Below are positions 38,165-53,058 of a DNA stretch of 64,000 bases, one piece after another. Position 1 is the first letter of the stretch. Each line of letters opens with the position of its first letter. This DNA is from an uncultured Bacilli bacterium (GTDB lineage Bacteria; Bacillota_I; Bacilli_A; RF39; UBA660). The DNA lies in the NCBI GenBank assembly GCA_944358675.1, contig CALVRN010000003.1:3163-67162 (forward strand). Reading direction: 5' to 3'. Made by a program: the position numbers and the translations under genes. The notes below the pieces were generated by a model. It made no database searches, was not told where the DNA came from, and saw nothing but the letters and a program-made list of their open reading frames with translations.

Positions 38165-39190
38165 TTATTCAGTTGCGGTTGTTAGTTGAAGGTCAAAGGT
38201 GATTTTTCCACCTGATGCGTTGTTTTCACAGTCGACATCTTGTCCTTCAATCCACATATAAACTCTAACTTTTGTTACACCTTTTTCAAGGTTTATTAAT
38301 GCTTGATTTTCATCAAATCCAGTTTCAGTTTTAATTGCTGGAGTTACTGTTTGGAATAATGTAGCATTATTACTACCAGTACTTGTTCCATCATGTTTAG
38401 CTTGTCCTAAAGTAATACCTTCTTCTGTTCCAAAGGCAGCTTTAATACCATCATAGGTTACAGCAGCATTTCCTGTACCTTGATTTACGGTTACACCATA
38501 AACATCACGGGCGTTAGCAACACCATAAGCTGTATGATCATCATAGTTTGGTTCCCAAATTGTTACTGGTGAAGCAGCCCCATCATTAATTGATTGAAGG
38601 GATGATACTGATTCACCACTATCTTTGTTACCTAGTACAACAAAGGCAACTCTGGTAGCATTTTTAATACCTTTATCATTATCATCAGCAAAAGTAATAC
38701 CTGAATTTGAAGTTAAATAAATTTGAGCAGCTTCTTCTGTTCTTAAGAAGATATCATAAGCAACGAAAGCTCCTGATGCTGTAGTGTTGGTTTCAGTAGA
38801 TTTAGAAGCAGATAAGACAAAATCTCCTCCATCGTCTGCTGTTACGGTTCCTAGGAACATTTCCATTTTTCCAGTACTATCTACAGTTCCTACAGATGAA
38901 ACTGGTTCAATAGTTGCTGGAATTTGGTTAACGGCTGCGGTATATGTTCCGCTAGCACTTGTTAAATCTGATACATCCAAAATTGATTTCCAGTTTTGAG
39001 CATCAGCTGATATTTGTAAACCACTTTTAGCTGTAACGTTTACATCAATTGGGTTTACAGATACTGTTTTATTGGCTGTAAACCAAGCATAAGTTGCAGT
39101 TCCAAAAATTATACCTGTTCCAATCATTAAAAATAATAGTAATAAAACTCTTCTTTGTTTTCTTTTTTGTGTTTTTTTCTTTTTTTCCAT
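38165..39190 (-). CDS. SipW-cognate secreted protein, candidate major fibre subunit (paralog of 50321..51307)
   Basis: 341 aa. Signal ...LFLMIGTGIIFGTATYAWFTANKTVSV (TasA-class motif). Ala/Thr/Gly/Ser-rich beta-type composition. C-terminal RVYMWIEGQDVDCENNASGGKITFDLQL shared with the paralog. Own promoter and terminator. Confidence 0.7.
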   Translation of the reverse strand: MEKKKKTQKRKQRRVLLLLFLMIGTGIIFGTATYAWFTANKTVSVNPIDVNVTAKSGLQISADAQNWKSILDVSDLTSASGTYTAAVNQIPATIEPVSSVGTVDSTGKMEMFLGTVTADDGGDFVLSASKSTETNTTASGAFVAYDIFLRTEEAAQIYLTSNSGITFADDNDKGIKNATRVAFVVLGNKDSGESVSSLQSINDGAASPVTIWEPNYDDHTAYGVANARDVYGVTVNQGTGNAAVTYDGIKAAFGTEEGITLGQAKHDGTSTGSNNATLFQTVTPAIKTETGFDENQALINLEKGVTKVRVYMWIEGQDVDCENNASGGKITFDLQLTTATE

Positions 39191-39274: not shown

Positions 39275-39835
39275 TTACATTTGTTTTGAATCTATATAAA
39301 TAGTCGCACTTTCTAAAAGGTCCTGATATTCCGATGATTTATACTGCTCAGGGAAATTTACAACTAATTTATAATTATCAGTTTGCTTTACATCGTGTGT
39401 AAAGTTTTTTTTAGGTGTATGGAATTTATAAAAATACATTCCATCTTCATCTTGATATATTTCTTTACTTGTAATTATATTATCCGTGCTATCGGATAAA
39501 TAGATTTCATATTCAACTGGTAAATTAGTGGTTGTTACTAAAGTTAATTCATATTCTAAATCTACTTCACTAGTTTTATTATCTTTAAAGTTAGATACAT
39601 TTATGCTATAAACATAGTCTTGTCCATCTGGCGCTATTTCAAACATTTTTATATCTTCACTTTGGGTTTTTGTGTCTAAAACATAAAATGCGATATCAAG
39701 GTTTGCTTTACCTTTTCCGTCTGTTTGAAATGATGAAAAGGTTCTACCTAGTATTAATAATATAAATATTAAAACAAGGACAATGGTTATACGATTAAAT
39801 TTTATAAATTTTTTCTTATCAATCATTTTTTTCAT
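39275..39835 (-). CDS. secreted protein with SipW-cognate signal (module C cargo)
   Basis: 186 aa. ...LIFILLILGRTFSSFQTDGKGKANLDIA (compare TasA ...WAAFNDIKS). Overlaps the upstream sipW by 17 nt. Confidence 0.6.
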   Translation of the reverse strand: MKKMIDKKKFIKFNRITIVLVLIFILLILGRTFSSFQTDGKGKANLDIAFYVLDTKTQSEDIKMFEIAPDGQDYVYSINVSNFKDNKTSEVDLEYELTLVTTTNLPVEYEIYLSDSTDNIITSKEIYQDEDGMYFYKFHTPKKNFTHDVKQTDNYKLVVNFPEQYKSSEYQDLLESATIYIDSKQM

Positions 39836-40400
39836 CCTTTTTTAATAAAATACCAGAGTAATATATTCCAAAATCGTCATCTTTAGATAATTTCTTTTTA
39901 CCTGTATATGAGAATGCAAGTGAGAAAAGAAATAGTGTAATACATATTAAAGCAATTATTTTAGGTGTAGTTATTACTTTATACCAAACACCAAAGTTAG
40001 GTAGTATTTTTATTACTTTACCAATAATTTGAGTTTCAGCTATACTACCATCTGCATCGTTATTGGCATCTCCTTTGGTTATATATGTATTACCATTTTT
40101 AGATATTAATCTATGAGTAACTAAACTTTCTCCATCATCATATGTAATAATATCATTTTCTGATACATCTTTGGTTACTTTAACTAATATTAAATCGTTA
40201 GTTGTAATTTCTGGAGCCATACTGTTACTGGCTATTTGAAAGACTGTATATGAAAATATACTGACATATTTATGATTTAGTATTTTGAGGTTAATAAAAG
40301 CGTATAAGACAATTAATAAAATAATGCCTAAAATTACTAGTAAAATATTACTAATAACTTTTAAAGTTTTATATAAAACTTCTTTTTTCACTTTCACCAC
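39819..40400 (-). CDS. sipW: signal peptidase I, SipW type (catalytically intact)
   Basis: 193 aa. SNSMAP catalytic Ser, VTHRLIS His, TKGDANNDADG. N- and C-terminal TM. Confidence 0.8.
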   Translation of the reverse strand: MVKVKKEVLYKTLKVISNILLVILGIILLIVLYAFINLKILNHKYVSIFSYTVFQIASNSMAPEITTNDLILVKVTKDVSENDIITYDDGESLVTHRLISKNGNTYITKGDANNDADGSIAETQIIGKVIKILPNFGVWYKVITTPKIIALICITLFLFSLAFSYTGKKKLSKDDDFGIYYSGILLKKDEKND

Positions 40401-40404
40401 CTCT

Positions 40405-40971
40405 TTACTCTATGTACTGATTAAAATTAATACTAATTGGTATTTCTATTTGACTATTTTCATCTAGGCCTAACTGAGAATCACTTTCGTTATATTCTTC
40501 TGAATCAGTCCAGCTGAATGTTACTTTAATCATATCTGTTTTACCATTTTGAATATCATTCAAAGTAATGATTTTACTATATGTATCATTTTCTTTGGTT
40601 AAAACTGTACCATTAATTCCTTCAATACTATCTATTTTTATTTGTGGATATGTATCTGTAAGATCAATGTTTAAGAAATACTCGATGGCGACATCTGTAT
40701 CTTTAGGGTCTATTTCTAAAATAAATTCACCTTTGGAGCCAGGAGCAAATTTACCATCACTGACTTTTCCATTATTGGTATAGGTGATGTTATCGACATA
40801 GAAAGTACTATCTACACCAAGATCATAATCATTGACATAAATGTGCCATTTAGCAATTTTTAAATCATTTTCACTTTGGATATTGCTTTCAAAAACAGCT
40901 AAAGAGGATGCGAGTTCAAAGATTGTTAAACCTAAAAACAAACATCCTATAATGATAAATAATTTTTTCAT
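40405..40971 (-). CDS. secreted protein with SipW-cognate signal (module D cargo); paralog of 31326..31910
   Basis: 188 aa. Signal ...LFLGLTIFELASSLAVFESNIQS. Shared blocks are listed under the 31326..31910 entry. Confidence 0.65.
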   Translation of the reverse strand: MKKLFIIIGCLFLGLTIFELASSLAVFESNIQSENDLKIAKWHIYVNDYDLGVDSTFYVDNITYTNNGKVSDGKFAPGSKGEFILEIDPKDTDVAIEYFLNIDLTDTYPQIKIDSIEGINGTVLTKENDTYSKIITLNDIQNGKTDMIKVTFSWTDSEEYNESDSQLGLDENSQIEIPISINFNQYIE

Positions 40972-41492
40972 TCTTCATCTAATGGGGTTTTTAGTTCTAT
41001 AATGAAACGATATATTTCATAAAGTAATAATAGTAATGTTGGTAAAACAATTATAAGCAAGAATCCAAAACGAGATTCTAAGAATCCTAATACTTTTCCA
41101 ACATTGTTATAAACTGTAGTTGTTTCAGTTTTACCGATTAAACTAGCACTTGATATATCGTGATTATCATTAATAGTAAATGTTCTTTCGGTATCAGTTA
41201 TAACTTCAACGTTGGTTACAGTACCAAGATTAATGCTTGGAATACCATTAGTTACTTCATAAAATAGTATTTCATCACCATTTTTTATTTCACTGATGTC
41301 GTTTTGTTTTACAACTAATAAATCCCCTTCTTTATATGGCTGTAATTCATCTTCGACAATGATTAAACTATTTCCAAGCATTACGGTTATATTATAATCA
41401 TTGTAATTTAATAAAAATGCGGTAAGAATTATAACGAGTGCGAGATAAACTGTACATATAATTCCAAATAAAACTTTTAAAACTTTTTTCAT
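40968..41492 (-). CDS. SipW-like signal-peptidase homolog lacking the catalytic Ser/His (pseudo-peptidase)
   Basis: 174 aa. GNSLII in place of SGSMxP. INLGTV in place of THRV. TINDNHD in place of TKGDNN. N- and C-terminal TM retained. Overlaps its cargo gene by 4 nt. Confidence 0.55.
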   Translation of the reverse strand: MKKVLKVLFGIICTVYLALVIILTAFLLNYNDYNITVMLGNSLIIVEDELQPYKEGDLLVVKQNDISEIKNGDEILFYEVTNGIPSINLGTVTNVEVITDTERTFTINDNHDISSASLIGKTETTTVYNNVGKVLGFLESRFGFLLIIVLPTLLLLLYEIYRFIIELKTPLDEE

Positions 41493-41538: not shown

Positions 41539-43053
41539 TTAGATAGTTTTTTCCTGTATCTTTTTAAAGCTTTCAATATTTTTTAAGGTTTCGCTAGAAA
41601 TATTTAAGGTTTTTAATTGGTAATTTATAATAACAGTGTTTAGATTATCAATTAAAGTTTTTAGATTATTTTCTTCTAGCATGTCTTTAGTTAAATTAAT
41701 ACCAAAAATTCGGTAATTGTTTACAATAACGGTGGCTAAATCCTTCTCTTCTAAAATAGTTGTGTTATTAATTAAATTGTTATTTGGATTTAATGTGAAA
41801 TAATATAAGTCATTAATTTGTTTGTTTAATGATTCTTCATCTGTTTTATCAAAATGTTTTGCTAGTAAACTATAATACTGACAAGATAATAACAAGGCTT
41901 TAAATATCGTGGAATTATCTTTTAAATTTTGTTTGATGATGACTTTAAACATATTTTCATCTATTTCATCATAAATTGTTTTTATTTCGTTTATAATATT
42001 TTCGGCTTCTAATTCAAATTTATTAACTTTAGTTTTTTTATTTGAACTAATGGTTTTTTTATTTAATTTAAATAATTTTTTTTCTAATTTTCTGATTTTT
42101 TTAAATCTTATTTCTAAAAAACTTTTTTCTAAGGTTTCATTATATAATGTTTTGATAGTATCTATTAGTTTAGAATATTTTAAATAATTTTGATATTCTT
42201 CTAAAGTGTTTTTTAATTTTTTTATGATGGTAATTAAATCTTCTCTTTTTTCCAAAGTTAAGTTATCTAAAATTGTATTTACTTTATCATCTGAATAGTT
42301 ATCAATTAATAAATTACCACTTACAAATTCATGAATTAGATTGTTTTTATCGTTTAATTTTTCATTTTCTAATTTTTCTCTTAAATAAGCGTAATCATCT
42401 ATTAGATTTTTTTCACCATCTTTGAATTGGGATAACATTATTTTGCAGTTTTTTTGAATGTGTTTTTTTAATTTATCTTCATTTTTAAAGTATAGAAAAC
42501 GAAGATTGAATTCTAATTGCATAATGATATTTGGACATTTCCAATATATGTTTTCAAATGATTTTTTTAAATTTTCATTTTGCATGTCACTACGATATTT
42601 GAAAAACATATACATGTATTCATTAACAAATCTGGTGTAGTTGAAATCATCACTTGTAATATTAATTCCAGATAATTCAAATATATTAATAGCTGATGAG
42701 ATTTTGCTATTTATTTGATTAAAGTCTTCGCTGGCAAAACCTGAAAGTAAAAATACTATTTTATCTAATTTTAATTTTTCATAAGGTGTATTTAAATTAC
42801 TTGTATACATTAAGGCTTTAGCAAAGCTATCTATACTTTTTTCTTCATTTGAATAGTCAGTGGCGGGAACTTCAAAATATGGATTTAATCTATTTTGAAG
42901 TTCTTGATATATTTGATCTTTAGTAGTTTCATATGAATCAATTATTTTTTGAACTTCTTCTATATAATGTTTTTTGTTTTTTTCGTTATTTATAGGAAGA
43001 CTGCCTATTACTTCTTTATGAAGGTTGAAGTCTTTTTCTAATTTTTCAAGCAT
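41539..43053 (-). CDS. cytoplasmic coiled-coil hypothetical protein
   Basis: About 505 aa. The track starts at GTG 43062; ATG 43053 with an AGGTGAG RBS is the more likely start. Lys/Glu/Asn-rich, predicted coiled coils, no known motif. Confidence 0.5.
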   Translation of the reverse strand: MLEKLEKDFNLHKEVIGSLPINNEKNKKHYIEEVQKIIDSYETTKDQIYQELQNRLNPYFEVPATDYSNEEKSIDSFAKALMYTSNLNTPYEKLKLDKIVFLLSGFASEDFNQINSKISSAINIFELSGINITSDDFNYTRFVNEYMYMFFKYRSDMQNENLKKSFENIYWKCPNIIMQLEFNLRFLYFKNEDKLKKHIQKNCKIMLSQFKDGEKNLIDDYAYLREKLENEKLNDKNNLIHEFVSGNLLIDNYSDDKVNTILDNLTLEKREDLITIIKKLKNTLEEYQNYLKYSKLIDTIKTLYNETLEKSFLEIRFKKIRKLEKKLFKLNKKTISSNKKTKVNKFELEAENIINEIKTIYDEIDENMFKVIIKQNLKDNSTIFKALLLSCQYYSLLAKHFDKTDEESLNKQINDLYYFTLNPNNNLINNTTILEEKDLATVIVNNYRIFGINLTKDMLEENNLKTLIDNLNTVIINYQLKTLNISSETLKNIESFKKIQEKTI

Positions 43054-43159
43054 TACTCTCACCTGCTTTTTTTAATTGTTCTAGCTCTTTTAGATATGAA
43101 ATGATTTGATTATAAGCTTCAATTAATTCTTTTGTTTCTATTTCTTTCATATGACCCTC

Positions 43160-46100
43160 CTATTTTATTATAACATATTCTTCACAATCTCCTATATAAA
43201 CATCTCCATCATATAGACTAAAGACAAATTTATATGTTCCACTAACTAAATTTTCTTTTAAGTATAGTGATTTATTTAAGTTATCTAAAGGATTTTCTTC
43301 AAACATGTATGTGTAATCACCTTTGTCAATTAAATTATTGCTGATGTAATCAGTTAAGTTTACTTTGGTATATGTCATGTCATAGACTTCGTTATAGTTT
43401 CTCCTATATAGACTTATTCTAACATTTGGATCTGCTAAATTTGATGAGTATTTCATATTAAATATTAGGGTGTTGTTATTATAATTAGTAAATCCTGTAT
43501 CTTTATCAATTATTTTAAATCGATCGTTTAAGGTTATATCTAATCCAAATCTACTATTAATGATTGTGAATGGTATTTCTGCAACATCCGAAGATTGATA
43601 TCCATAATAGATTCCATCCGGTGAACCAAATGATTCTATTTTCATTGTATAATTACCACTATTTAAATTGGTATTTTTAGTATTTATTTTTAATCTACTA
43701 TATACGTTTGCTACTCTATCGGCTAATGGTATTCTAACACTACCATCCATTCTCGGATAATATGTTACTCCATCTAGTTCATAACTTAAACCTAATAAAC
43801 TACTATTATTTAATTGGTTACCATTACTATCATATATGGTTATTTTAGTACCTAATTTTTTATCATAATAAGTGGTGTCTGTAACGGTAATGCTATTTAC
43901 TATCGGTGATATGAAGTTAGTTGTCAAATCTAAATTAACTGTATCACCAATGTATATTTGATTTTTACTTAAAGTTCCCGATATATCGATAGTAGCGCTT
44001 TGCTTATCATAAAGACTATAAGTCAAATTGGCGTGCTGGATACCTAAAACACTTATTAATGTTTGGTCGTCTTGATTTCGCATTTCCATAAGCAAGGTAT
44101 TGTTTAACATATCACCAGATATATTGGTATCACCAAAATCAACTATAAATATAAATTCTTCATGTAGTATACCTAAGTCTTTATCGTAATACATATTATT
44201 TATGTTTTCTTCATTATAGTTATTATTTGCATTAGTAGATCCCATAGCAATAAAATCACTTAATAAATATGAGCTTTCTTTATATATTTGATATTCATTT
44301 GTGGCTTTAATGACATCTTCATCATTTATAACTTTATAGTAATATACTGGAGAGCTTCCACCTAAATCAATCATGGTTATTTTAGTGTTTTTAGGTAAAA
44401 CATAGTTTGAAACTAAAGCGTGATGATATCCTTCTTTATAATAAGGTTCATCTGTTTCCATATATAGTGAATAATAAGCACTTAATTTTGATTTATTAGT
44501 GATGTTAGTTGAAGTTGAAGCAAATAAATCATATTTTTCTCCTGGTGTCATGGCTCCTTCATATTGATTATCAGTGTATAAGGCACTACTTAAATTTACA
44601 TTTATATTAATTCTGGTTACTTCATTATTTAAGTCATCAATTGGTGTAATAGCTACTAGTGAGATAACTACTGTTCCTAATTTTTTTTCTTGAGTAAGAT
44701 TTTTAGAGTGATATAAGTAAAATATAAAACTTGGAACTGTACTTGAGTTTTCTGATTTGTAATTTGTCGTACCAGATATTGGGGTTTGTTCATCGGTCAT
44801 AAAATTAGTTGATCCAACTGTTACAAATCCACTTTTAGATGATTCCATGGATAAACCCATTTTATTGTCAGCGGTACCTTCAGTATTGATTCTATCTATT
44901 TCATCTGGAGATACTAATTCAAAATCTGATTCAAGGTTCTGATAGTTAAAGCCTAATATTTCAAAAGTCGTATTTGGTTTTGAAGAAGTAACTAGTGGAA
45001 GTTCATAAGTACCTAATGTGGAATATTTTGAGGCTGTTAATGATAATTCATAAGTTGTTACTGTTTCTCCAACAACCCACATATAATAGCTTGCATCGCT
45101 TGGTGTCGGTTCGATGTATTTTACTTCGATTGTTCCTTCATTTTCTTCACTTTCATAGTTACTATAAAAGCCATCTTTTGTTATATCGTGATCTGTTTTA
45201 TGCATGCCTAAAGCGTAACTTCCTGATGTGAAAGCATAAAATTCTCCGGAAGCAACAGTGTCGCCAAAGTCATATTTATTATTATAAAAGGCTGTTAAAA
45301 CTTCACCATTTCTATCTAGTTGATACATTCCAAAGAAGGTCATACCATTTACTTCACCATAGTTGGTGACAGCTTCATTAGTTGCAATGTTTAAGTTTTT
45401 ACCTTCTAACATATATACTCTATTGTTGACATTTTTTGTAACTGTTCCATCATCGTTAATGGTAACCGTGGCTTTTTCTTCTTTATCATCTATTTTTAAG
45501 CTAGAAAATTTTTCTAATAAGTTAGTTCCATTTTCTAAGAATAAGGTACTATTATTGGCTAATTTTAATTCTTTGACACGGCTAATACTGAATTCTACAT
45601 CTGAATATTCGTTTGTTCTATCGGTAGTTCCTGATAGTTTGATGGCTGAATTTTTTATTGTTACAATATCCGCTCTTTGAATTGATATGTTTTCTTTATA
45701 ATTATCAAAGGTTCCATAGTTAGATATATCGATGTAGCTATACCCTTCTGTACTTGAGGCATTACCACTTCCAAAAATAGATCCTGATATATTGAAGTTA
45801 CTATAATTATTGCCATCAATATCAATATTTATTCCTTTAGTAACACTTATAAATGAATAGTCATAGTCTTCATCACCGGCGGCATTGGCTTCTCCACCAC
45901 CGAAGACTGTGCCATCAATTGATATATCACTTTTGATTAGGTTTTCGGTATTGTTACCAATAACTAAATCAACTATCCCATATAATATTGCGGTGTTTGC
46001 TCCTCCATAGACATTTCCATGAATAGTTGCTCCAGCTATTTGGACTTTACTTTCTGAATTGTTTTTTTCTTCTGTACCTGTATTGGCAGCATTTCCACCA

Positions 46101-49100
46101 CCAAAGACATGTTTGCCAACGGTTGTATTATTGTCAATATTTAAAGTGGTGTTGCCATTTACTACAGCACTTGCTCCATTACCGCCAGCATAAATACTGC
46201 TAGAAACATTTGAGTTTGAAACATAGACATTTGTATTACCGTTTACACTTCCTAGGTTACCACCACCAAATAAGTCTCCTTTAATTGATGAGTTTTTAAA
46301 GGTAACGTTGGTATTAGTGTTAATACCAGCTTGGTTTCCACCTCCATAAAAGGCTCCATCCATATCTATGTTATTAACATTTACAGTTGTTTTATCTGTA
46401 ATTGTCATGTTGCCGCCACCATATATATTAGTATAATGTCCGCCGTTTAAGTTAATGTTTGCATCATTAGTAATGCCGCCTAAATTATTTCCACCATATA
46501 AATTTGTAACATTTAAATTTTGTGGATTATTTGATTCAATATTACTTTTAGAAACTTCACCGCTTTGGTTACTACCACCATATATATTAGTTGCTGTTCC
46601 ACTTGTTAGGTTAATATTAGAGGTATCTATTCCAGCATTATTACCTCCTCCAAAAATATTTGTACATGTAGAACCTTCTAAAATTACATTTGATGTATTA
46701 GTATTTGTTTCGTTACCACCACCATAAACATTTTCAATTTGACCATTATATAAATTTACATTTGTTTGATTGGTAACTCCACCTTGATTATTTCCACCAT
46801 ATACATTATTTATTTTAGCGCCATTAATATCTATGTTGGATGTTTTGACATCTCCTTTTTTGTTTGAACCACCATAAACTGAATTAATATTTCCATTTTT
46901 TACATCTATGTTTGTTGATGAAATAATACTGGCTTCTTCTCCACCGCCATAGATATCCCCTATATTTCCATTATTGATTAAAATATTAGAGGTATCAGTA
47001 TCTGTTAGTTTTCCACCACCATATAATGTGGTTACATCTCCACTATTTACAGTGATATCAGATTCTGTTGTTTGGCCACCAACATTATTTCCACCGTATA
47101 AACTTGTGGTTGCCCCTCCGGTGACAATTATTGTACTTGTACTTACATCTCCACTTTGATTACTACCACCAAAGAGATTAGTGACTGTACTACCATTTTG
47201 ATAAACATGGGTATTAGTGACTAAGGTTTGATTTCCTCCACCATAAACATTAGTTACTGTTCCATTATTTAAATAAACAGCAGTCATACCATTTGGCTGT
47301 CCATTAGCATCATTTCCACCATAGACATTAGTGATTTTACCATCATTAATATTTACTGTAGTGTTTCCACCAACATATGGTGTTTGACTAGTACTTCCTT
47401 TAGCACCGCCGAAAACACTATTTATATTTCCACCATTTATATTAATATTTATATTATAATTACTTTGATTAGTTGTTTTACTAGTAGCATTAACGACACC
47501 ATAAGCACTACCACCATAAATAGAACCTGTGACAGTTAAATTGTCACTTGTTGTTTGGATATTAATGTCTTGACTAACATAAGTATCACTACCTAATCCA
47601 CCGCCGTAGACATCTTTTGTTTGTCCACCTGAAAGAGTTATATTAGCACTTCCATAGACTGTTCCTTCTTGGTTACTACCACCATAAATGGAATCTTTGA
47701 CTGTGCCATTTGTCATGGATATGTTGATGCTTGAAGTTACTCTACCGTTTCTACCTGATCCACTATGGTTACCAGATCCAAAGGCCGAACCAATTGTTCC
47801 ACCCAATATTTGAATGTTTGTGTTGCTGGTACCACTGCCACTATAACCAACAGTACCATAGTTTCCACTTCCATAAACATTTTGTTTTACTACTGCCTTA
47901 TCATTAATAATGATATTTGAATTATTTACTGAACCAATAGTAGCATACCTAGTATTACCGTTTCCAGCTCCAAAGACAGAGCCAGATTCAGCTCCCCATA
48001 GGGTTCGGTTGTTATTTATATTGTCATCGGTACCAATGGTGGCTGTTCCACCTATATATACATAGGTATCTCCTGTGATAGCTCCATCAGCATTACCACC
48101 ATCTGTACCGTTACTACCGCCAAAGACACTGTAATTGACTGTTCCACCAGTTACTTGGATTATTCTATTACCATATGTTGTGGTTGTTCCAGCTCCTCCA
48201 AAGATAGCATCAACGCTTCCGCCAGTCATGTAAATAAAGGTATCATTTAATTCTCCTTTAGAATCGGTTTCTTCTGTTAATGGGCCACCATTTAAATTAT
48301 AAATATATCCGCCTTCAACTTTGATACTTCTTGGTGCATAATGTGTTCCACCATAACGGCCTCCAACGTATACACCTGTAGATATATCTAATTTACTGGT
48401 TCCAAAGCTACCGCTTTTAATATTGGTGTTTAAAGCGGAAATTAATGTATCATTTGATGAATGAATTCGCCCAGACCAACTTCCAGATGCACAATAATAA
48501 ACAGATAATTTATCATTGTTTTGGGTTACTCTATCATAATCATTTCCATATACAGTTATTTGTTCAACATATAAGATTGTACTTCTTGAGCTTGTAGATG
48601 CACCATATGTGGAAGATGTAGAGTTATATTTTCCAGATTCTACTTCTAATTTATATTTTTTGGGATTACTAGCTGATCCTATTGTAGTATTTCCCCATAT
48701 ACTACCACTTTCAGCATTGGCACCTATAATTGATACGAAGTTAACATTATTACCACTTTGTTTTATATTTCTTCCTAATTTAACATTGAAATAATTTCCA
48801 TAGAAAACTCTTCTAGTATTACTATTATTAGATGGGTCAGTGTTAGCATTTCCTGTTCCACCATTGATTGTTAATTCTTCTATTCTTGTATCGTTATAAC
48901 ATGTAACACCAGTATTATTAACATTCCATGTTGCATTATAATCATGGCCATTATAAATGCCGGTTAAGGTAAATGGTTTAGTGTTTGAGCTAGACCAAGT
49001 ACTAGATGTATTTCCAGTCATAACGACTAAATTGGTATCTCTTGTAGTTAAGTAATAATAAGTTTCATCTTTATTGTATAATTCTTCTGTACCATTATTA

Positions 49101-50299
49101 TAAAATTGAATTAATTCATAATATGTACAGCCACTTCTAGTATTACAAGTTCCTGATTGAACAGTTCCAACGTTGTTATAATATCCATCTATTGATTCTC
49201 GATAATTTATATTGACAGCTCTATAGTAACCTGACATATTAGTGTTTTCGTTAAAGTTTTCATCATCTTCACTACCAACATATATAGGTTCTAAATTAGC
49301 TTCAACAAACCCTCCACGACTGTTTCTAGTATAATAAGTGGCGTTTGGGTCGTATTCATCATTTTCATCTTGCAGACGAAAAATTGTACAATCATTTGTA
49401 TAATCTCCGACACTTGGGCGCCATCCTAGACTTGGGGCATCACAGGTGTATTCATTATACTGATTATAATAGTTTCCATCTTCGTCATAGCAATCAGTAC
49501 ATGTACCATAATTAGTTTCTGTTTCAGGTCCTGTAAATATACCACCACTAGAAATAACGGTTGTTGTTGTAGTTATTGTTTCAGATTTATAATATCCATC
49601 TACACTTGGGTATTCATATATGTCTTTAGAGGTATTGACTTTGTTCATTCCCTCATCATTTAAATCATTAAAAACATTATTGAATGATCCATTAACGTAG
49701 CTTACTGCTCCTTTTATCCAAGAAGCATGCATGGTTATTTCAATATCATTTGGAATTCCTCCTGTGTATGTTACTGGAACAGTTAATGTTCTTGTATAGT
49801 AAGTATCATCATATGATATTTTAGCGTTTTGGTAATCGGTTATCCATCCGTTAAATACGGTATCATCAGGATGGTTATTAAATGGGTTATCAATTAATTC
49901 AATGTTAATATAACCGTTTTCCACAGGATAATATTTATAATAAACTAATTTACTTTGATTTTCAGTTAGAGAAACATAACCTGTTTTTTTGGTATTATAA
50001 TCTTCCCCATCATAAGTTATTATTACTTTAACTAAATTATTATCATTATAAAGGTTTTTGTTATTTAATGTAGGTAGTTTTCCATCTGTACTGTTGGTAT
50101 AATTTTGACCAGTGTAATAATAGTAATCACTGTCTAAATCATTAATATATACGGTGTCCTCAATTATACCATGAGAAACTGCCATGTCTGTCCCACTTTT
50201 TATGGCTCCATAGGTAAAGGCAATTGTAGTAATGGATAAAAGAATAGCTAAAAATGTAAGTAGTTTTAATTGCTTATTGTTTTTTATTCTTTTAAACAT
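43160..50299 (-). CDS. giant (2379 aa) secreted beta-solenoid repeat protein (candidate fibre-associated adhesin or sheath)
   Basis: N-terminal signal ...LLTFLAILLSITTIAFTYGAIKSG. The central about 750 aa are made of about 30 tandem 20-22 aa units of the form x-G-x-I-x-N-[VIL]-[YF]-G-G-[GSN]-N-x-x-G-x-[VI]-x-x-S-N-I (NVYGGNN, SVYGGSN, NIFGGGN ...). This is the signature of a parallel beta-helix. Confidence 0.75.
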   Translation of the reverse strand: MFKRIKNNKQLKLLTFLAILLSITTIAFTYGAIKSGTDMAVSHGIIEDTVYINDLDSDYYYYTGQNYTNSTDGKLPTLNNKNLYNDNNLVKVIITYDGEDYNTKKTGYVSLTENQSKLVYYKYYPVENGYINIELIDNPFNNHPDDTVFNGWITDYQNAKISYDDTYYTRTLTVPVTYTGGIPNDIEITMHASWIKGAVSYVNGSFNNVFNDLNDEGMNKVNTSKDIYEYPSVDGYYKSETITTTTTVISSGGIFTGPETETNYGTCTDCYDEDGNYYNQYNEYTCDAPSLGWRPSVGDYTNDCTIFRLQDENDEYDPNATYYTRNSRGGFVEANLEPIYVGSEDDENFNENTNMSGYYRAVNINYRESIDGYYNNVGTVQSGTCNTRSGCTYYELIQFYNNGTEELYNKDETYYYLTTRDTNLVVMTGNTSSTWSSSNTKPFTLTGIYNGHDYNATWNVNNTGVTCYNDTRIEELTINGGTGNANTDPSNNSNTRRVFYGNYFNVKLGRNIKQSGNNVNFVSIIGANAESGSIWGNTTIGSASNPKKYKLEVESGKYNSTSSTYGASTSSRSTILYVEQITVYGNDYDRVTQNNDKLSVYYCASGSWSGRIHSSNDTLISALNTNIKSGSFGTSKLDISTGVYVGGRYGGTHYAPRSIKVEGGYIYNLNGGPLTEETDSKGELNDTFIYMTGGSVDAIFGGAGTTTTYGNRIIQVTGGTVNYSVFGGSNGTDGGNADGAITGDTYVYIGGTATIGTDDNINNNRTLWGAESGSVFGAGNGNTRYATIGSVNNSNIIINDKAVVKQNVYGSGNYGTVGYSGSGTSNTNIQILGGTIGSAFGSGNHSGSGRNGRVTSSINISMTNGTVKDSIYGGSNQEGTVYGSANITLSGGQTKDVYGGGLGSDTYVSQDINIQTTSDNLTVTGSIYGGSAYGVVNATSKTTNQSNYNINININGGNINSVFGGAKGSTSQTPYVGGNTTVNINDGKITNVYGGNDANGQPNGMTAVYLNNGTVTNVYGGGNQTLVTNTHVYQNGSTVTNLFGGSNQSGDVSTSTIIVTGGATTSLYGGNNVGGQTTESDITVNSGDVTTLYGGGKLTDTDTSNILINNGNIGDIYGGGEEASIISSTNIDVKNGNINSVYGGSNKKGDVKTSNIDINGAKINNVYGGNNQGGVTNQTNVNLYNGQIENVYGGGNETNTNTSNVILEGSTCTNIFGGGNNAGIDTSNINLTSGTATNIYGGSNQSGEVSKSNIESNNPQNLNVTNLYGGNNLGGITNDANINLNGGHYTNIYGGGNMTITDKTTVNVNNIDMDGAFYGGGNQAGINTNTNVTFKNSSIKGDLFGGGNLGSVNGNTNVYVSNSNVSSSIYAGGNGASAVVNGNTTLNIDNNTTVGKHVFGGGNAANTGTEEKNNSESKVQIAGATIHGNVYGGANTAILYGIVDLVIGNNTENLIKSDISIDGTVFGGGEANAAGDEDYDYSFISVTKGINIDIDGNNYSNFNISGSIFGSGNASSTEGYSYIDISNYGTFDNYKENISIQRADIVTIKNSAIKLSGTTDRTNEYSDVEFSISRVKELKLANNSTLFLENGTNLLEKFSSLKIDDKEEKATVTINDDGTVTKNVNNRVYMLEGKNLNIATNEAVTNYGEVNGMTFFGMYQLDRNGEVLTAFYNNKYDFGDTVASGEFYAFTSGSYALGMHKTDHDITKDGFYSNYESEENEGTIEVKYIEPTPSDASYYMWVVGETVTTYELSLTASKYSTLGTYELPLVTSSKPNTTFEILGFNYQNLESDFELVSPDEIDRINTEGTADNKMGLSMESSKSGFVTVGSTNFMTDEQTPISGTTNYKSENSSTVPSFIFYLYHSKNLTQEKKLGTVVISLVAITPIDDLNNEVTRININVNLSSALYTDNQYEGAMTPGEKYDLFASTSTNITNKSKLSAYYSLYMETDEPYYKEGYHHALVSNYVLPKNTKITMIDLGGSSPVYYYKVINDEDVIKATNEYQIYKESSYLLSDFIAMGSTNANNNYNEENINNMYYDKDLGILHEEFIFIVDFGDTNISGDMLNNTLLMEMRNQDDQTLISVLGIQHANLTYSLYDKQSATIDISGTLSKNQIYIGDTVNLDLTTNFISPIVNSITVTDTTYYDKKLGTKITIYDSNGNQLNNSSLLGLSYELDGVTYYPRMDGSVRIPLADRVANVYSRLKINTKNTNLNSGNYTMKIESFGSPDGIYYGYQSSDVAEIPFTIINSRFGLDITLNDRFKIIDKDTGFTNYNNNTLIFNMKYSSNLADPNVRISLYRRNYNEVYDMTYTKVNLTDYISNNLIDKGDYTYMFEENPLDNLNKSLYLKENLVSGTYKFVFSLYDGDVYIGDCEEYVIIK
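45900..48300 (-). repeat. tandem array of 60-66 bp coding repeats (Gly-rich beta-helix rungs) inside the giant gene
   Basis: Recurrent ccaccaccata / ccgccaccata (reverse-complement of YGGG/YGGN codons) at regular spacing on the plus strand. Boundaries are approximate. Confidence 0.6.
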
Positions 50300-50320: not shown

Positions 50321-51307
50321 TTAAGCTGGATTGGTTGTGAATTCTAGACTAAAACTTATGTCTCCATAAGATGCATTATCTTCGCAGTCGACATCTTGTC
50401 CTTCAATCCACATGTAAATTCTTAATTTTGTTATTCCTGAATTTAAGGTTAAAATTTGTTCGTTGTTAGTATTATTCATAACTGTTTTTATATTTGGATT
50501 AACACTTTTAAAGAAATTAGGATATCTATTTGAATTAGCTTCGGTTATTGAAACATTATCTCTAGCAGCTATATTATTAATAACTCCATAATAAGGTAAG
50601 GCGGCGGCGCCTGATGTTGAGGTGTGCAATCCATAAATATTTAAAGCGTTTTGAACACCATAGGTTGTATGGACATCATAATTAGGTTCCCATATAATTG
50701 CATTACTTGCATTATTTAAATTTTGGGCAATATTTGAATTATCTCCACTTGTTCCTTCGTTTAGAAAGGCAACTCTTGTGGCGTTTTCAATACCAACACT
50801 TTGGTCACCTAGATATGTGATTTTTGAATTACTTGATAAGTATAAATCTTTTTGATTAGAAGTTTTAAAAAATATATCAAATGCTATAAAACTTCCATCA
50901 CTTTCTTCTCCAAAACTATTTGTTTCTATGCTTCTATTGGCAACTAAAACGTAGTTTGTTCCACTTGTGTTTGTAGCTTCACCTTTAAACATTTCTAATT
51001 TTCCGTTACTGACATTTCCTCCTGTTGATGTTGGAAATAGTTGATATGGAACTTGATTTTCACTTCCTGGATAAGTTTTAGCGGCATCTTTGATATCATC
51101 AGTGGTTATAACTTGTTTCCAGTTGATGGCATCAGTACTAACTTCTAATCCTCCATCAGCTTGAACATGTACATTTAAAGCATCAATACTAACTACTCTA
51201 TTGGCTGTAAACCAAGCATATGTTGTAGTTATTAGTAAGATTGATGTAAATAAGATTGAGAGTAACAATAATTTTCTTCTTTTTTTGGTATTATTTTTCT
51301 TTGGCAT
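50321..51307 (-). CDS. SipW-cognate secreted protein, paralog of the 341-aa major-subunit candidate
   Basis: 328 aa. ...LLLLSILFTSILLITTTYAWFTANRVVSI. C-terminal RIYMWIEGQDVDCEDNASYGDISFSLEF. Overlaps the upstream gene by 17 nt. Confidence 0.7.
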   Translation of the reverse strand: MPKKNNTKKRRKLLLLSILFTSILLITTTYAWFTANRVVSIDALNVHVQADGGLEVSTDAINWKQVITTDDIKDAAKTYPGSENQVPYQLFPTSTGGNVSNGKLEMFKGEATNTSGTNYVLVANRSIETNSFGEESDGSFIAFDIFFKTSNQKDLYLSSNSKITYLGDQSVGIENATRVAFLNEGTSGDNSNIAQNLNNASNAIIWEPNYDVHTTYGVQNALNIYGLHTSTSGAAALPYYGVINNIAARDNVSITEANSNRYPNFFKSVNPNIKTVMNNTNNEQILTLNSGITKLRIYMWIEGQDVDCEDNASYGDISFSLEFTTNPA

Positions 51308-52004
51308 TTTCTATATGTTCCTCCGTAATTTCCATTTTCAGTTTTATTTCACCACCAATAATGGCATCAACACATTCTGGATCATCACCTTCTAGGTAAA
51401 TGACAATTGTGTATTTGTCATTTTCATTTGGTTTAATATGTTTTCTTTGTTTTAAAACAGCAATGTCATCTGAATAAAATGGGGTTGTACCTTCTTCTGG
51501 GTTACCTGTCAATTCGTTTTTTTTGGCATAAATTATTCTTTCGTTATTTTGATAAATCATTATACGAATTGCTTCATCAACGTTTTTGATGACATCTAAG
51601 ATATTTATTTGATACCAATAATTTATTGTTTCTTTTCCATGGTTACCAACATAAAATGTGTATGCGATATAGTTTTCACCATTATGAGTACCTTCGGCTT
51701 CATTATTAATGTTTTGTGGTAACCAATTTACTGATATATTATCCATAAAATCTATTTCTTTAGCATATAATCTATTTTTGGGTTCTGGATTATCTAAGTG
51801 TTCAAAAAGAACTAGTCCACTTTTTAAAGAAAAGTTTGGATCTAATGTGACTGTGAAACTTCCGCCTTTATAAATTACCATCAACACGAAAAAAATAGCT
51901 AGAAGTAAAATAAATAAAATTATGACTATTCTCTTTGTATACTTAAGCCTCTTTTTTCTTTTTTCTAGTTTTTGGGCGGTGACTTTAACATTTGTTAGTG
52001 CCAT
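51291..52004 (-). CDS. membrane-anchored protein sharing the island's C-terminal E-G-D-D-x-E-C motif (candidate fibre base/anchor)
   Basis: 237 aa. Basic cytoplasmic N-terminus (KRKKRLKYTKR), one TM, external domain ending ...VIYLEGDDPECVDAIIGGEIKLKMEI (compare YMWIEGQDVDCENNASGGKITFDLQL). Confidence 0.55.
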   Translation of the reverse strand: MALTNVKVTAQKLEKRKKRLKYTKRIVIILFILLLAIFFVLMVIYKGGSFTVTLDPNFSLKSGLVLFEHLDNPEPKNRLYAKEIDFMDNISVNWLPQNINNEAEGTHNGENYIAYTFYVGNHGKETINYWYQINILDVIKNVDEAIRIMIYQNNERIIYAKKNELTGNPEEGTTPFYSDDIAVLKQRKHIKPNENDKYTIVIYLEGDDPECVDAIIGGEIKLKMEITEEHIENAKEK

Positions 52005-52476: not shown

Positions 52477-52502
52477 GAAAAAAAAGAACTATTTCTAGTT
52501 CT
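52477..52502 (-). terminator. strong terminator after the type IV pilin gene
   Basis: agaacta-tttc-tagttct hairpin (52485-52502) overlapping the stop, then T8 on the minus strand (A8 at 52477-52484). Confidence 0.65.
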
Positions 52503-53058
52503 AATCTTGTCCTTCGTAAGTTCCTCCAACAAAGTTTGCAGCATCATCAGCACTTTCTAATTCTACATCGCTTTCTGTTCTTGAGCAGAACATTGAGTTT
52601 GGATCAAAAGTTTCTGTTCCTTCTTTCATAGTAGTACAGTAATATTGACCAAATTTCAATTTGTAAGCAATGATATTACCATCTGCTTGGATAGTAACAT
52701 AACCACCTTGTGGCATTTCACCACTTGCTGATACGGCTTGGTTGTTGATATATCCTTTACCATATCCTCCACCTGTAGCAGTTACAGTACCCCAATCTGT
52801 GTTTTGTGAACCTTTACTAGAACCTTTAGGGAAGTTAACAGTAAATGGAATACCTACTGGATCACTATCTACTTGAGCTTGTGAATATGCAACTCTAACA
52901 GCATCGATAGTTCCCCATGCTTTATCGACAGCTGCATTTCTTCTTGATTGTTCGATAACGTTCAAAATGATTGGAGTTGTAATTAAGGCGATAATAGCTA
53001 AGATAACGATTACGGCCAATAGCTCAATCAAAGTAAAACCTTTAGAATTCTTTCTCAT
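52501..53058 (-). CDS. type IV pilin (PilA-like major pilin)
   Basis: 185 aa. MRKNSKGFTLIELLAVIVILAIIALITTPII is the prepilin leader and N-methyl-Phe helix (G|FTLIE). C-terminal Cys pair YYCTTMKEGTETFDPNSMFC is the D-region disulfide loop. AGGAGGTG RBS. Candidate promoter TTGATT - 17 - (TGa)TATATT upstream. Confidence 0.8.
   Translation of the reverse strand: MRKNSKGFTLIELLAVIVILAIIALITTPIILNVIEQSRRNAAVDKAWGTIDAVRVAYSQAQVDSDPVGIPFTVNFPKGSSKGSQNTDWGTVTATGGGYGKGYINNQAVSASGEMPQGGYVTIQADGNIIAYKLKFGQYYCTTMKEGTETFDPNSMFCSRTESDVELESADDAANFVGGTYEGQD

Follow-up and report, generated by a model that had tools for sequence, protein, structure and literature searches.

A giant protein with a predicted beta-solenoid shaft, encoded in a SipW signal peptidase cluster of uncultured gut Bacilli

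Introduction

The DNA considered here is a stretch of 64,000 nucleotides (the window) from an uncultured Bacilli bacterium of the RF39 lineage (assembly GCA_944358675.1, contig CALVRN010000003.1, positions 3,163 to 67,162 of the forward strand), and all coordinates below are counted from its first letter. On its minus strand lies a gene for a protein of 2379 amino acids (aa), called the giant in what follows, beside genes for signal peptidases of the SipW type and for other exported proteins. The locus raises a simple question: what kind of protein is the giant, and what could it do for its host? A preliminary description, made from the nucleotide sequence alone, took it for a glycine-rich beta-solenoid belonging to a fibre operon, possibly a tip adhesin, a sheath or a ruler, with a DNA repeat block prone to length variation. 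The answer proposed in this work, held with about even confidence, is that the giant is an adhesin associated with a fibre or with the cell envelope, namely the rod of the SipW cluster, composed of a head, a solenoid and a stalk of immunoglobulin-like (Ig-like) domains.

The giant gene and its product

The gene is an intact open reading frame (ORF) at 43160..50299 on the minus strand, just as first described, and a 100%-identical copy of its product was found in public assemblies. The genes around it all lie on one strand, and the window has a G+C content of about 28%. The mature protein, of about 254 kDa, is acidic (pI 4.45). The following parts were distinguished along the chain, the structural evidence coming from AlphaFold2 (AF2) models.

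43160..50299, minus strand: complete coding sequence of the giant (ORF and identical public protein)
50201..50299, minus strand: signal peptide or membrane anchor, aa 1-33, with a basic N-terminus, hydrophobic aa 11-31 and then T-Y-G-A (hydrophobicity and AF2 helix)
49034..50170, minus strand: beta-rich N-terminal head, aa 44 to ~422, bounds approximate (DSSP on the AF2 model and conservation profile)
48230..49033, minus strand: irregular N-terminal coils, aa ~423-690, bounds approximate, starting from a conserved YYYLxTRDTN motif (short periodic strands by DSSP on the AF2 model)
45725..48229, minus strand: 29 Gly/Asn-rich solenoid coils, aa 691-1525 (motif spacing, autocorrelation and AF2)
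45380..45724, minus strand: last non-glycine coils and transition, aa 1526 to ~1640 (AF2 and conservation profile)
43163..45379, minus strand: C-terminal all-beta domains, chiefly a tandem array of beta-sandwiches (Ig-like), aa ~1641-2379 (AF2 and Foldseek)

The composition changes along these parts. The region of aa 40-690 is enriched in asparagine, threonine and tyrosine (12%, 12% and 10%, respectively), in agreement with the Tyr/Asn/Thr-rich N-terminal region noticed at the outset, while aa 691-1525 contain 19% glycine and 16% asparagine. The C-terminal region, put initially at roughly 900 aa and said to be poor in repeats, comprises about 854 aa and is indeed non-periodic.

The giant is a secreted or surface-exposed protein with a Sec-type N-terminal signal, the segment of aa 11-31 being its sole hydrophobic one. 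Directly after the hydrophobic segment, the motif [TS][YF][GSA] occurs in 94 of 99 distinct N-termini of the family, compared with 7.5% of control windows, and the T-Y-A context found in two neighbouring exported proteins, of 328 and 341 aa, parallels the T-Y-G of the giant. Two traits of SipW-dependent proteins, co-location with a TIGR02228 peptidase and a shared motif in the cleavage region, are present. The signal had been called TasA-like: its hydrophobic nature stands, and the likeness to TasA is not supported, since the TIGR04088 model misses the giant, although T-Y-[GSA] is common to the giant and its neighbours.

A predicted beta-solenoid with coils of 25 residues

Two AF2 models, computed from alignments of family members, cover the giant, one for aa 1-1200 (predicted local distance difference test, pLDDT, 89.7; predicted template modelling score, pTM, 0.81) and the other for aa 1180-2379 (pLDDT 87.8, pTM 0.60). 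In the N-terminal half, a helix (aa 2-36) and a low-confidence linker (aa 34-43) precede a beta-rich head reaching to about aa 420, and strictly periodic coils begin at about aa 684. In the C-terminal half the coils run on to about aa 1530, followed by a few non-glycine coils and then by an all-beta region. According to DSSP, each coil of 24-25 aa is formed by two strands (8 + 6 residues) and a Gly-rich arc, and the coils have a pLDDT above 90. The pTM of 0.81 over 1200 residues suggests that the modelled half behaves as one rigid body. The regularly stacked coils of the model fall in the range of 20-30 residues that is generic for beta-solenoids, and a rigid beta-solenoid is predicted to span from about aa 423 to about aa 1610.

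The periodicity is also seen in the sequence. Anchoring on [YF]GG gave 29 coils between aa 700 and 1509, with the signature [IVL][YF]GG[GSN]N; the coil consensus reads N-[IV]-x-[IVL]-x-x-G-x-[IV]-x-N-[IVL]-[YF]-G-G-[GSN]-N-x-x-G-x-[VT]. Successive coils are spaced by 24-26 aa (mode 25) in a regular core, aa 993-1344, and by 26-50 aa at the edges. Residue autocorrelation peaks at offsets of 24, 25 and 50 (z 6.5-7.6, against a shuffle maximum of 5.4), and the same analysis gave no periodicity in the flanking N- and C-terminal regions. Thus, of the roughly 30 rungs over about 750 aa that had been proposed, the number holds (29 coils over about 835 aa), and the period of 20-22 aa has to be replaced by one of 24-26 aa. 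Nor are the repeats near-perfect, as had been stated: protein identity between coils averages 0.25 overall and 0.32 in the core, with a maximum of 0.52.

Within aa ~990-1300 (46400-47460, minus strand), coil types seem to alternate (GGSNxSGxV, GGNNxGGxT, GGGNxAxT), and spacings of DNA repeats group at 72-78 and 222-225 nucleotides (nt). These observations hint at an ancestral super-repeat of three coils, of about 74 aa, and the autocorrelation does not clearly prefer 75 over 25 or 50.

Comparison with solved structures separated the two halves. In a Foldseek search of the PDB, the N-terminal half, including solenoid and head, had no significant match. The best matches were all right-handed beta-helical adhesins, EtpA (E 0.08) and SepA, Hbp and EspC (E 0.35-1), aligned over more than 1100 columns with TM scores of only 0.11-0.16; a search of BFVD returned weak matches only (E ~1e-4), to long phage fibre-like models. 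The Pfam models Beta_helix, PATR and pectate lyase were not matched by the giant, either whole (E<=0.01) or as three segments (E<=10). The beta-helix first suggested is retained as a beta-solenoid, carried by the confidence of the N-terminal model and its periodic strands, whose two per coil compare with three (PB1-PB3) in the right-handed parallel beta-helix; its right-handed coiling and its affiliation to autotransporters or pectate lyases are not supported. The C-terminal half, with a tandem beta-sandwich region of about 640-740 aa in the model, matched the Ig-like domains of PrgB (8beg, E 2e-11) as well as the MG arrays of complement C3/C4/C5, alpha-2-macroglobulin, the S-layer of Nitrosopumilus (N. 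maritimus) and RbmA.

A solenoid coil typically adds about 4.8 Å to the length of a rod, and an Ig domain about 4 nm. With these standard dimensions, the modelled rod would be about 45-55 nm long.

Family, host range and conservation

No meaningful match to Pfam or NCBIfam was obtained for the giant, whether searched whole or, against Pfam, as three segments up to E 10, and searches of PDB sequences with the giant and with a profile of 32 family sequences revealed no relative. The family is nevertheless large: full-length relatives, of 2.1-4.7 thousand aa, number in the hundreds, and relatives turned up in 272 genomes when one genome per species was scanned. Comparisons at the level of the locus were made with the best 80 of these 272, and these 80 are all metagenome-assembled genomes (MAGs) of uncultured gut bacteria labelled Bacilli, Tenericutes, Mollicutes, Mycoplasmatota or Erysipelotrichaceae, among them Clostridium sp. 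CAG:451, Mycoplasma sp. CAG:877 and Firmicutes bacterium CAG:884. The hosts are taken here to be the RF39/RFN20/ML615J-28 group of small-genome Bacilli. A description of this group is available (PMC10868615). Several loci (L007, L008, L009, L014, L016, L020, L022 and others) carry syntenic orthologs of 50-63% identity in MAGs that bear the names Muribaculaceae, Bacteroidaceae, Sphaerochaetaceae or Vescimonas; in all likelihood these genomes are taxonomically mislabelled, or their contigs were mis-binned from the same Bacilli lineage.

Conservation is distributed unevenly along the chain. The head is the most variable part: at aa 201-300 identity amounts to 49% among close orthologs and to 16%, with 36% gaps, among distant ones, and the stretch of aa 34-43 is likewise variable and of low pLDDT. 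Invariant residues are found in the head (Cys286/304/385/391) and at its border with the solenoid (R420, T422, N423). Moreover, relatives insert extra modules, of about 100 residues on average, just after the signal peptide. In two relatives, Fib_succ_major and Gly_rich_2 domains were observed N-terminal to the solenoid (P0049, aa 1214-1393; P0060, aa 323-572 and 1520-1696), which is consistent with a swapping of binding modules at the head end.

The opposite end is nearly constant. Almost no indels occur from aa 1400 on, the C-terminal 850-1000 aa are the best conserved, and within them aa 1500-1800 stand out, with 78-85% identity in close orthologs (81-85% at aa 1526-~1640). Polar residues invariant in the family (Q1541, R1542, D1560-R1561-T1562-N1563, H1700, H1704, W1741 and E1745, encoded at ~45100-45800) lie there, and from the sequence the H-x3-H pair H1700/H1704 could be a metal or ligand site or an interface with a partner. 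The chain ends in Y-x-I-I-K-COOH, a terminus conserved to at least 90%. A search with just the C-terminal 854 aa retrieved 493 clusters at 50% identity (E<=1e-30 for 221 of these), and this module, which has a constant length and is the defining part of the family, is essentially always placed at the extreme C-terminus of the full-length proteins. A contact-dependent or polymorphic toxin was also considered and rejected, because the C-terminus is the most conserved part and not a variable toxin tip.

The gene cluster

The genes that accompany the giant are the following.

51291..52004, minus strand: 237-aa protein with an N-terminal transmembrane (TM) or signal segment, first gene of the conserved block (68/80 loci, 47-79% identity)
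50321..51307, minus strand: 328-aa exported protein with a SipW-type signal (TTYAWFTAN), paralog of the product of 38165-39190 (TIGR04088 E 0.003, 17.7 bits, just below the cut-off of 19)
43046..43150, minus strand: translationally coupled 34-aa ORF (MKEIETKELIEAYNQIISYLKELEQLKKAGESNA) without signal peptide, overlapping with the giant stop and the next ATG
41539..43053, minus strand: 504-aa protein without signal peptide, coiled-coil-like by eye, the most constant companion of the giant (77/80 loci)
40968..41492, minus strand: divergent SipW-like paralog of 174 aa (TIGR02228 E 2e-6, below cut-off; 57/80 loci)
39819..40400, minus strand: SipW/archaeal-type signal peptidase I, the only one of three paralogs above cut-off (TIGR02228 E 1.5e-21, 76.9 bits against 51.85; Peptidase_S24)
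38165..39190, minus strand: 341-aa exported paralog with a SipW-dependent-type signal peptide (TIGR04088 20.5 bits, above the cut-off of 19)
37605..38096, minus strand: divergent SipW-like paralog of 163 aa (NF046067 E 0.004, far below cut-off; 47/80 loci)

Several small exported proteins are also encoded, which brings the exported proteins of the cluster to at least six. The two divergent SipW-like paralogs may be inactive, or each paralog may be specialised for its own substrate.

The junctions around the giant are tight. The 328-aa gene ends 21 nt before the ATG of the giant, and the stop codon of the giant (TAG, 43162-43160) lies inside the AGGAGG of the 34-aa ORF (43150-43046), confirming the overlap with the ribosome-binding site that had been noticed at the outset; the stop of the 34-aa ORF in turn overlaps the ATG of the 504-aa gene. 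Of 74 related loci, at least 39 have a separate ORF of 30-45 aa with an ELIxxYxxIxxYLKxLE motif immediately behind the giant gene, and its product may, to judge from the sequence, be a dedicated cytoplasmic partner or chaperone. The 504-aa protein has no match in Pfam, NCBIfam or PADLOC.

Searches with tblastn found the cluster proteins again in most of the 80 related loci (the 504-aa protein in 77, the 328/341-aa proteins in 75, SipW in 69 and the 237-aa protein in 68), and the giant stays in the cluster in about 75 of them, in spite of rearranged gene order. Since the association holds where gene order differs, membership of the operon or cluster is well supported. Examples of such rearrangement were observed in two groups of loci. 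A block of genes for the 163-aa SipW-like paralog, for proteins of 305 and 326 aa and for an AAA+ protein of 504 aa, located downstream of the 341-aa gene in the window, lies upstream of the block formed by the 237-aa, 328-aa and giant genes in many close relatives (L001-L005, L012, L019, L032); in the loci of a distant subgroup (L028-L033, L041, L042), SipW and not the 328-aa gene precedes the giant.

The 328- and 341-aa proteins are 43% identical and share the invariant motifs TYAWFTAN and YMWxEGQDVDCE. Their family has more than 2000 relatives, and Pfam annotation is absent from all of the best 120 listed. No match to Pfam (M73) and none to the PDB, by sequence or by profile, was found for them, and alignment of the family with a B. 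subtilis TasA sequence by hhalign gave a probability of 0.2, that is, no signal. On sequence grounds, they are best treated as an uncharacterised exported family in its own right. The preliminary description placed the giant directly after a paralog of a major fibre subunit and, on that basis, in a fibre operon. An exported paralog does lie immediately upstream, and the operon is borne out by the overlapping junctions and the retention of the giant among relatives; the fibre part of both statements is not, owing to the lack of detectable TasA homology in the 328/341-aa proteins.

Other genes were observed around the cluster. A second protein of 504 aa (34178-35692, minus strand), with N-terminal hydrophobic segments by eye and a McrB-like AAA+ domain (PDB 6hz4 E 2e-4; PADLOC PDC-M26A E 5e-34), is encoded there, and the gene after it (33055-34164, minus strand) codes for a DUF2357 protein, DUF2357 being presumably a McrC-like N-terminal domain. 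This AAA+ protein is the most conserved one near the cluster (60-87% identity, 60/80 loci), adjacent even when blocks are permuted, and it may serve in defence or belong to the surface system. A type IV pilin-like gene (52501-53058, minus strand; N_methyl motif, E 2.9e-9) lies a short way upstream of the cluster; of the 80 related loci, only 1 has a homolog of it close to the giant. In C. perfringens, secretion of BsaC, a protein of the SipW operon, depends on a type IV pilin (PMC11580942). The genes flanking the cluster are housekeeping ones (valS, lepA), and a scan of the cluster for promoters and terminators gave results indistinguishable from shuffles.

Comparison with known systems

Several known types of surface protein resemble the giant in part. 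With the beta-helical passengers and TpsA adhesins of Gram-negative bacteria (EtpA, Hbp, SepA, EspC, pertactin, FHA) it shares a long single-chain beta-solenoid rod, which in these proteins is the shaft of a secreted adhesin. However, the structural match to them is non-significant (E 0.08-1), there is no TPS domain, and neither an autotransporter translocator barrel nor PATR was found in the giant by Pfam; its C-terminus consists instead of Ig-like sandwiches and its host is monoderm. Each of its coils, moreover, has two strands and a Gly-rich arc in 25 aa, with a signature, [YF]GG[GSN]N, for which there is no Pfam model. In chlamydial polymorphic membrane proteins (GGA[ILV]/FxxN) and in RTX beta-rolls (GGxGxD), a short Gly-rich motif occurs once per solenoid coil, as it does in the giant. 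Nevertheless, the motif differs, the period is 25 aa and not the 18 aa of an RTX turn, most coils lack the acidic Ca-binding position of RTX, and neither Chlam_PMP nor HemolysinCabind was matched in the giant by Pfam.

Among Gram-positive bacteria, the adhesins with Ig stalks (PrgB of Enterococcus and the antigen I/II and SasG types) combine a variable N-terminal head with a C-terminal stalk, as the giant appears to do, and PrgB is its best structural match. Unlike these, the giant has no LPXTG/sortase signal, carries a solenoid of about 1200 aa between head and stalk and is encoded in a SipW cluster, not in a conjugation or sortase locus. S-layer proteins resemble it only by their Ig-like arrays, including the archaeal S-layer found with Foldseek.

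As regards genetic organisation, the tapA-sipW-tasA operon of B. subtilis and sipW-bsaA-bsaB-bsaC of C. perfringens consist of SipW, its substrates and a larger secreted accessory protein, TapA or BsaC (PMC10151520; PMC11580942). The cluster of the giant likewise places SipW peptidases beside exported substrates, with TIGR04088-type signals on the neighbours of the giant. It differs in having three SipW paralogs and its set of at least six exported proteins, and its 328/341-aa proteins lack detectable TasA/Peptidase_M73 homology. The giant itself is about ten times larger than TapA, has no vWA domain and, in contrast to the TasA-type systems, shows no conserved free N-terminal donor strand, the corresponding aa 34-43 being variable.

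Neither the fold classes nor the overall design, that of a giant modular adhesin at the cell surface, is new. The novelty lies in the sequence family, without Pfam or NCBIfam profile or solved relative, in the 25-aa coil type, and in the constant linkage to a cluster with several SipW paralogs in a gut lineage that is uncultured and genome-reduced. The family is not described in the literature searched, on RF39 with TasA, pili or adhesins and on SipW with giant or beta-helix proteins; a paper on a TANB77 pilin proved unrelated to it.

Possible function and alternatives

If the giant is an adhesin, it could work as follows. A SipW-like peptidase of the cluster would remove the signal, cleaving after T-Y-G, and the conserved C-terminal module would dock onto a product of the cluster, which may be a polymer built from the 328/341-aa proteins or a partner bound to the membrane. 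Solenoid and Ig stalk would then act as a spacer of ~45-55 nm that displays the diversifying N-terminal head, which in relatives bears lectin-like inserts, to host mucus, food particles or other cells. The head would point outwards, given that variation and the gain of modules sit at the N-terminal end, and by analogy with PrgB-type adhesins and with sipW-bsaA-bsaB-bsaC. As to the tip adhesin, sheath or ruler of the preliminary description, the architecture of variable head, solenoid shaft and Ig-like stalk is adhesin-like; a ruler counts among the smaller rivals.

Several points weigh against this reading. TIGR04088 gave no match at E<=10 to the N-termini of the giant and four relatives, so that cleavage by SipW is no more than putative, and the helix at the N-terminus may instead stay in place as a membrane anchor. 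No means of attachment is apparent at the other end either: an LPXTG-like motif is absent from the protein by regular-expression search, no hydrophobic or TM segment is found at the C-terminus, which ends in ...EEYVIIK, and SLH or other S-layer anchoring domains were not matched in Pfam or NCBIfam. The head is without a significant structural match in the PDB, and sequence and models allow no inference of binding activity or ligand. Finally, as the 328/341-aa proteins are not demonstrably homologs of TasA, even the fibre is a putative structure.

A broader version of the adhesin reading has been considered more tentatively, as a possibility well below even: the giant may be the tip or the anchor of an undescribed system of surface appendages, by which RF39-type gut Bacilli with reduced genomes attach to host mucus or partner cells. 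Such a system would comprise a module of ~17-20 kb with three SipW-like peptidases and exported subunits unrelated to TasA, and would include the coupled 34-aa microprotein and the 504-aa cytoplasmic coiled-coil protein. The co-syntenic McrB-like AAA+ protein, if membrane-anchored as it appears, and its DUF2357 partner could possibly serve as motor for assembly or export.

The main rival explanation, rather unlikely in our estimation, is that the giant is a membrane-anchored spike of the envelope or part of a coat resembling an S-layer, covering the outer surface of thin-walled or wall-reduced cells, with the N-terminal helix uncleaved and the C-terminus distal. The lack of a C-terminal anchor and the failure of TIGR04088 speak for it, together with the N-terminal position of the single hydrophobic segment, which takes the form of a long helix (aa 2-36) in the model. 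Furthermore, one relative carries the NCBI name 'S-layer family protein', the oligomers of C. perfringens BsaA are anchored in the membrane and not in peptidoglycan (PMC11580942), and related orders have no sortases (PMC10868615). Against it stands the distribution of conservation: a spike of this kind would have its most variable, module-swapping part at the membrane and its most conserved part at the tip, whereas known surface proteins show the opposite arrangement. Further points against it are the T-Y-[GSA] motif behind the hydrophobic segment, near-universal and common to the SipW-type neighbours, the three SipW-like peptidases of the cluster and the absence of an SLH domain from the giant.

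Among the smaller rivals, the giant has also been considered as a component of a spore-surface appendage or of an exosporium-like layer, which the SipW cluster would produce when the cells sporulate. In B. subtilis, the first descriptions of TasA and SipW linked them to spores. Spore appendages often contain repetitive proteins of rod shape, and RF39 bacteria are predicted to be able to form atypical spores (PMC10868615). Against this, no sporulation promoter or gene was identified in the cluster (the promoter scan being uninformative), the flanking genes are housekeeping ones and nothing in the sequence is spore-specific, so that the proposal is judged improbable.

Still less credit, a very small one, is given to a secreted beta-helix enzyme, either a polysaccharide lyase of the pectate-lyase type or a glycosidase, with Ig-like domains as carriers. 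Many right-handed beta-helices are carbohydrate-active, relatives bear the carbohydrate-associated Fib_succ_major module, and invariant polar residues (Q1541, R1542, D1560, R1561, H1700, H1704 and E1745) cluster in the best-conserved segment. However, coils of glycine and asparagine only provide no conserved groove-forming loops, no match to Beta_helix, Pectate_lyase or glycoside hydrolase models of Pfam appeared even at E<=10, and neither the sequence and profile searches of the PDB nor Foldseek gave a significant match to an enzyme.

DNA repetition and constancy of length

The last alternative concerns the repeat block itself, at 45.9-48.3 kb, which was initially seen as repetitive at the DNA level, as a likely hotspot of length variation and, conceivably, as an artefact of assembly. 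That description does not hold for the DNA. Tandem Repeats Finder detected no array in the block, and a direct-repeat search of it returned only copies of 15-75 nt with 60-87% identity. DNA identity between coils has a mean of 0.44 and a maximum of 0.69, and the longest exact direct repeat in the whole coding sequence measures 18 nt. The lack of tandem repeats, the low identity of the coils and the short longest repeat make the block a poor substrate for slippage or unequal recombination.

Comparison of lengths leads to the same conclusion. Among the 14 other distinct sequences listed for the 90%-identity cluster of the giant, 13 have exactly 2379 aa, the remaining one, of 1518 aa, being probably a fragment. 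Two sister clusters have 2364-2367 and 2370 aa, orthologs at 61-72% identity have 2361-2391 aa, and the ortholog from a circular genome of 1,256,474 bp assembled from long reads with hifiasm has 2376 aa. The number of rungs does differ between distant lineages: relatives have 13 to 53 copies of the motif and measure 2275 to 3086 aa, with a concentration of indels at aa 801-1000 and 1201-1400. A contingency locus that expands and contracts by slippage, or a mis-assembled block, would account for the periodic protein and for the differing rung numbers of distant lineages, and is given practically no credence, since the block offers no tandem DNA repeat and lengths are constant among strains and, to within ~15 aa, among the orthologs, including the long-read genome.

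Significance

The expectation of a phase-variable or length-variable repeat locus can thus be removed. The RF39-type Bacilli, prevalent gut bacteria of which no culture has ever been obtained, possess genomes of ~1.2-1.3 Mb; the giant gene accounts for about 0.6% of such a genome, and its cluster for about 1.5%. The retention of both in such small genomes, across at least 272 genomes at the species level, speaks for a central function at the cell surface. The domain map, with its variable head and constant stalk, offers definite targets, namely the head for assays of glycan or host binding and the C-terminal module for the mapping of partners, as well as landmarks for antibodies and cryo-electron tomography in enrichment cultures, all of which bear on attachment and on dependence on host or partner cells. 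If the appendage system proposed above is real, these host-dependent bacteria would use it to attach to mucus or to partner cells.

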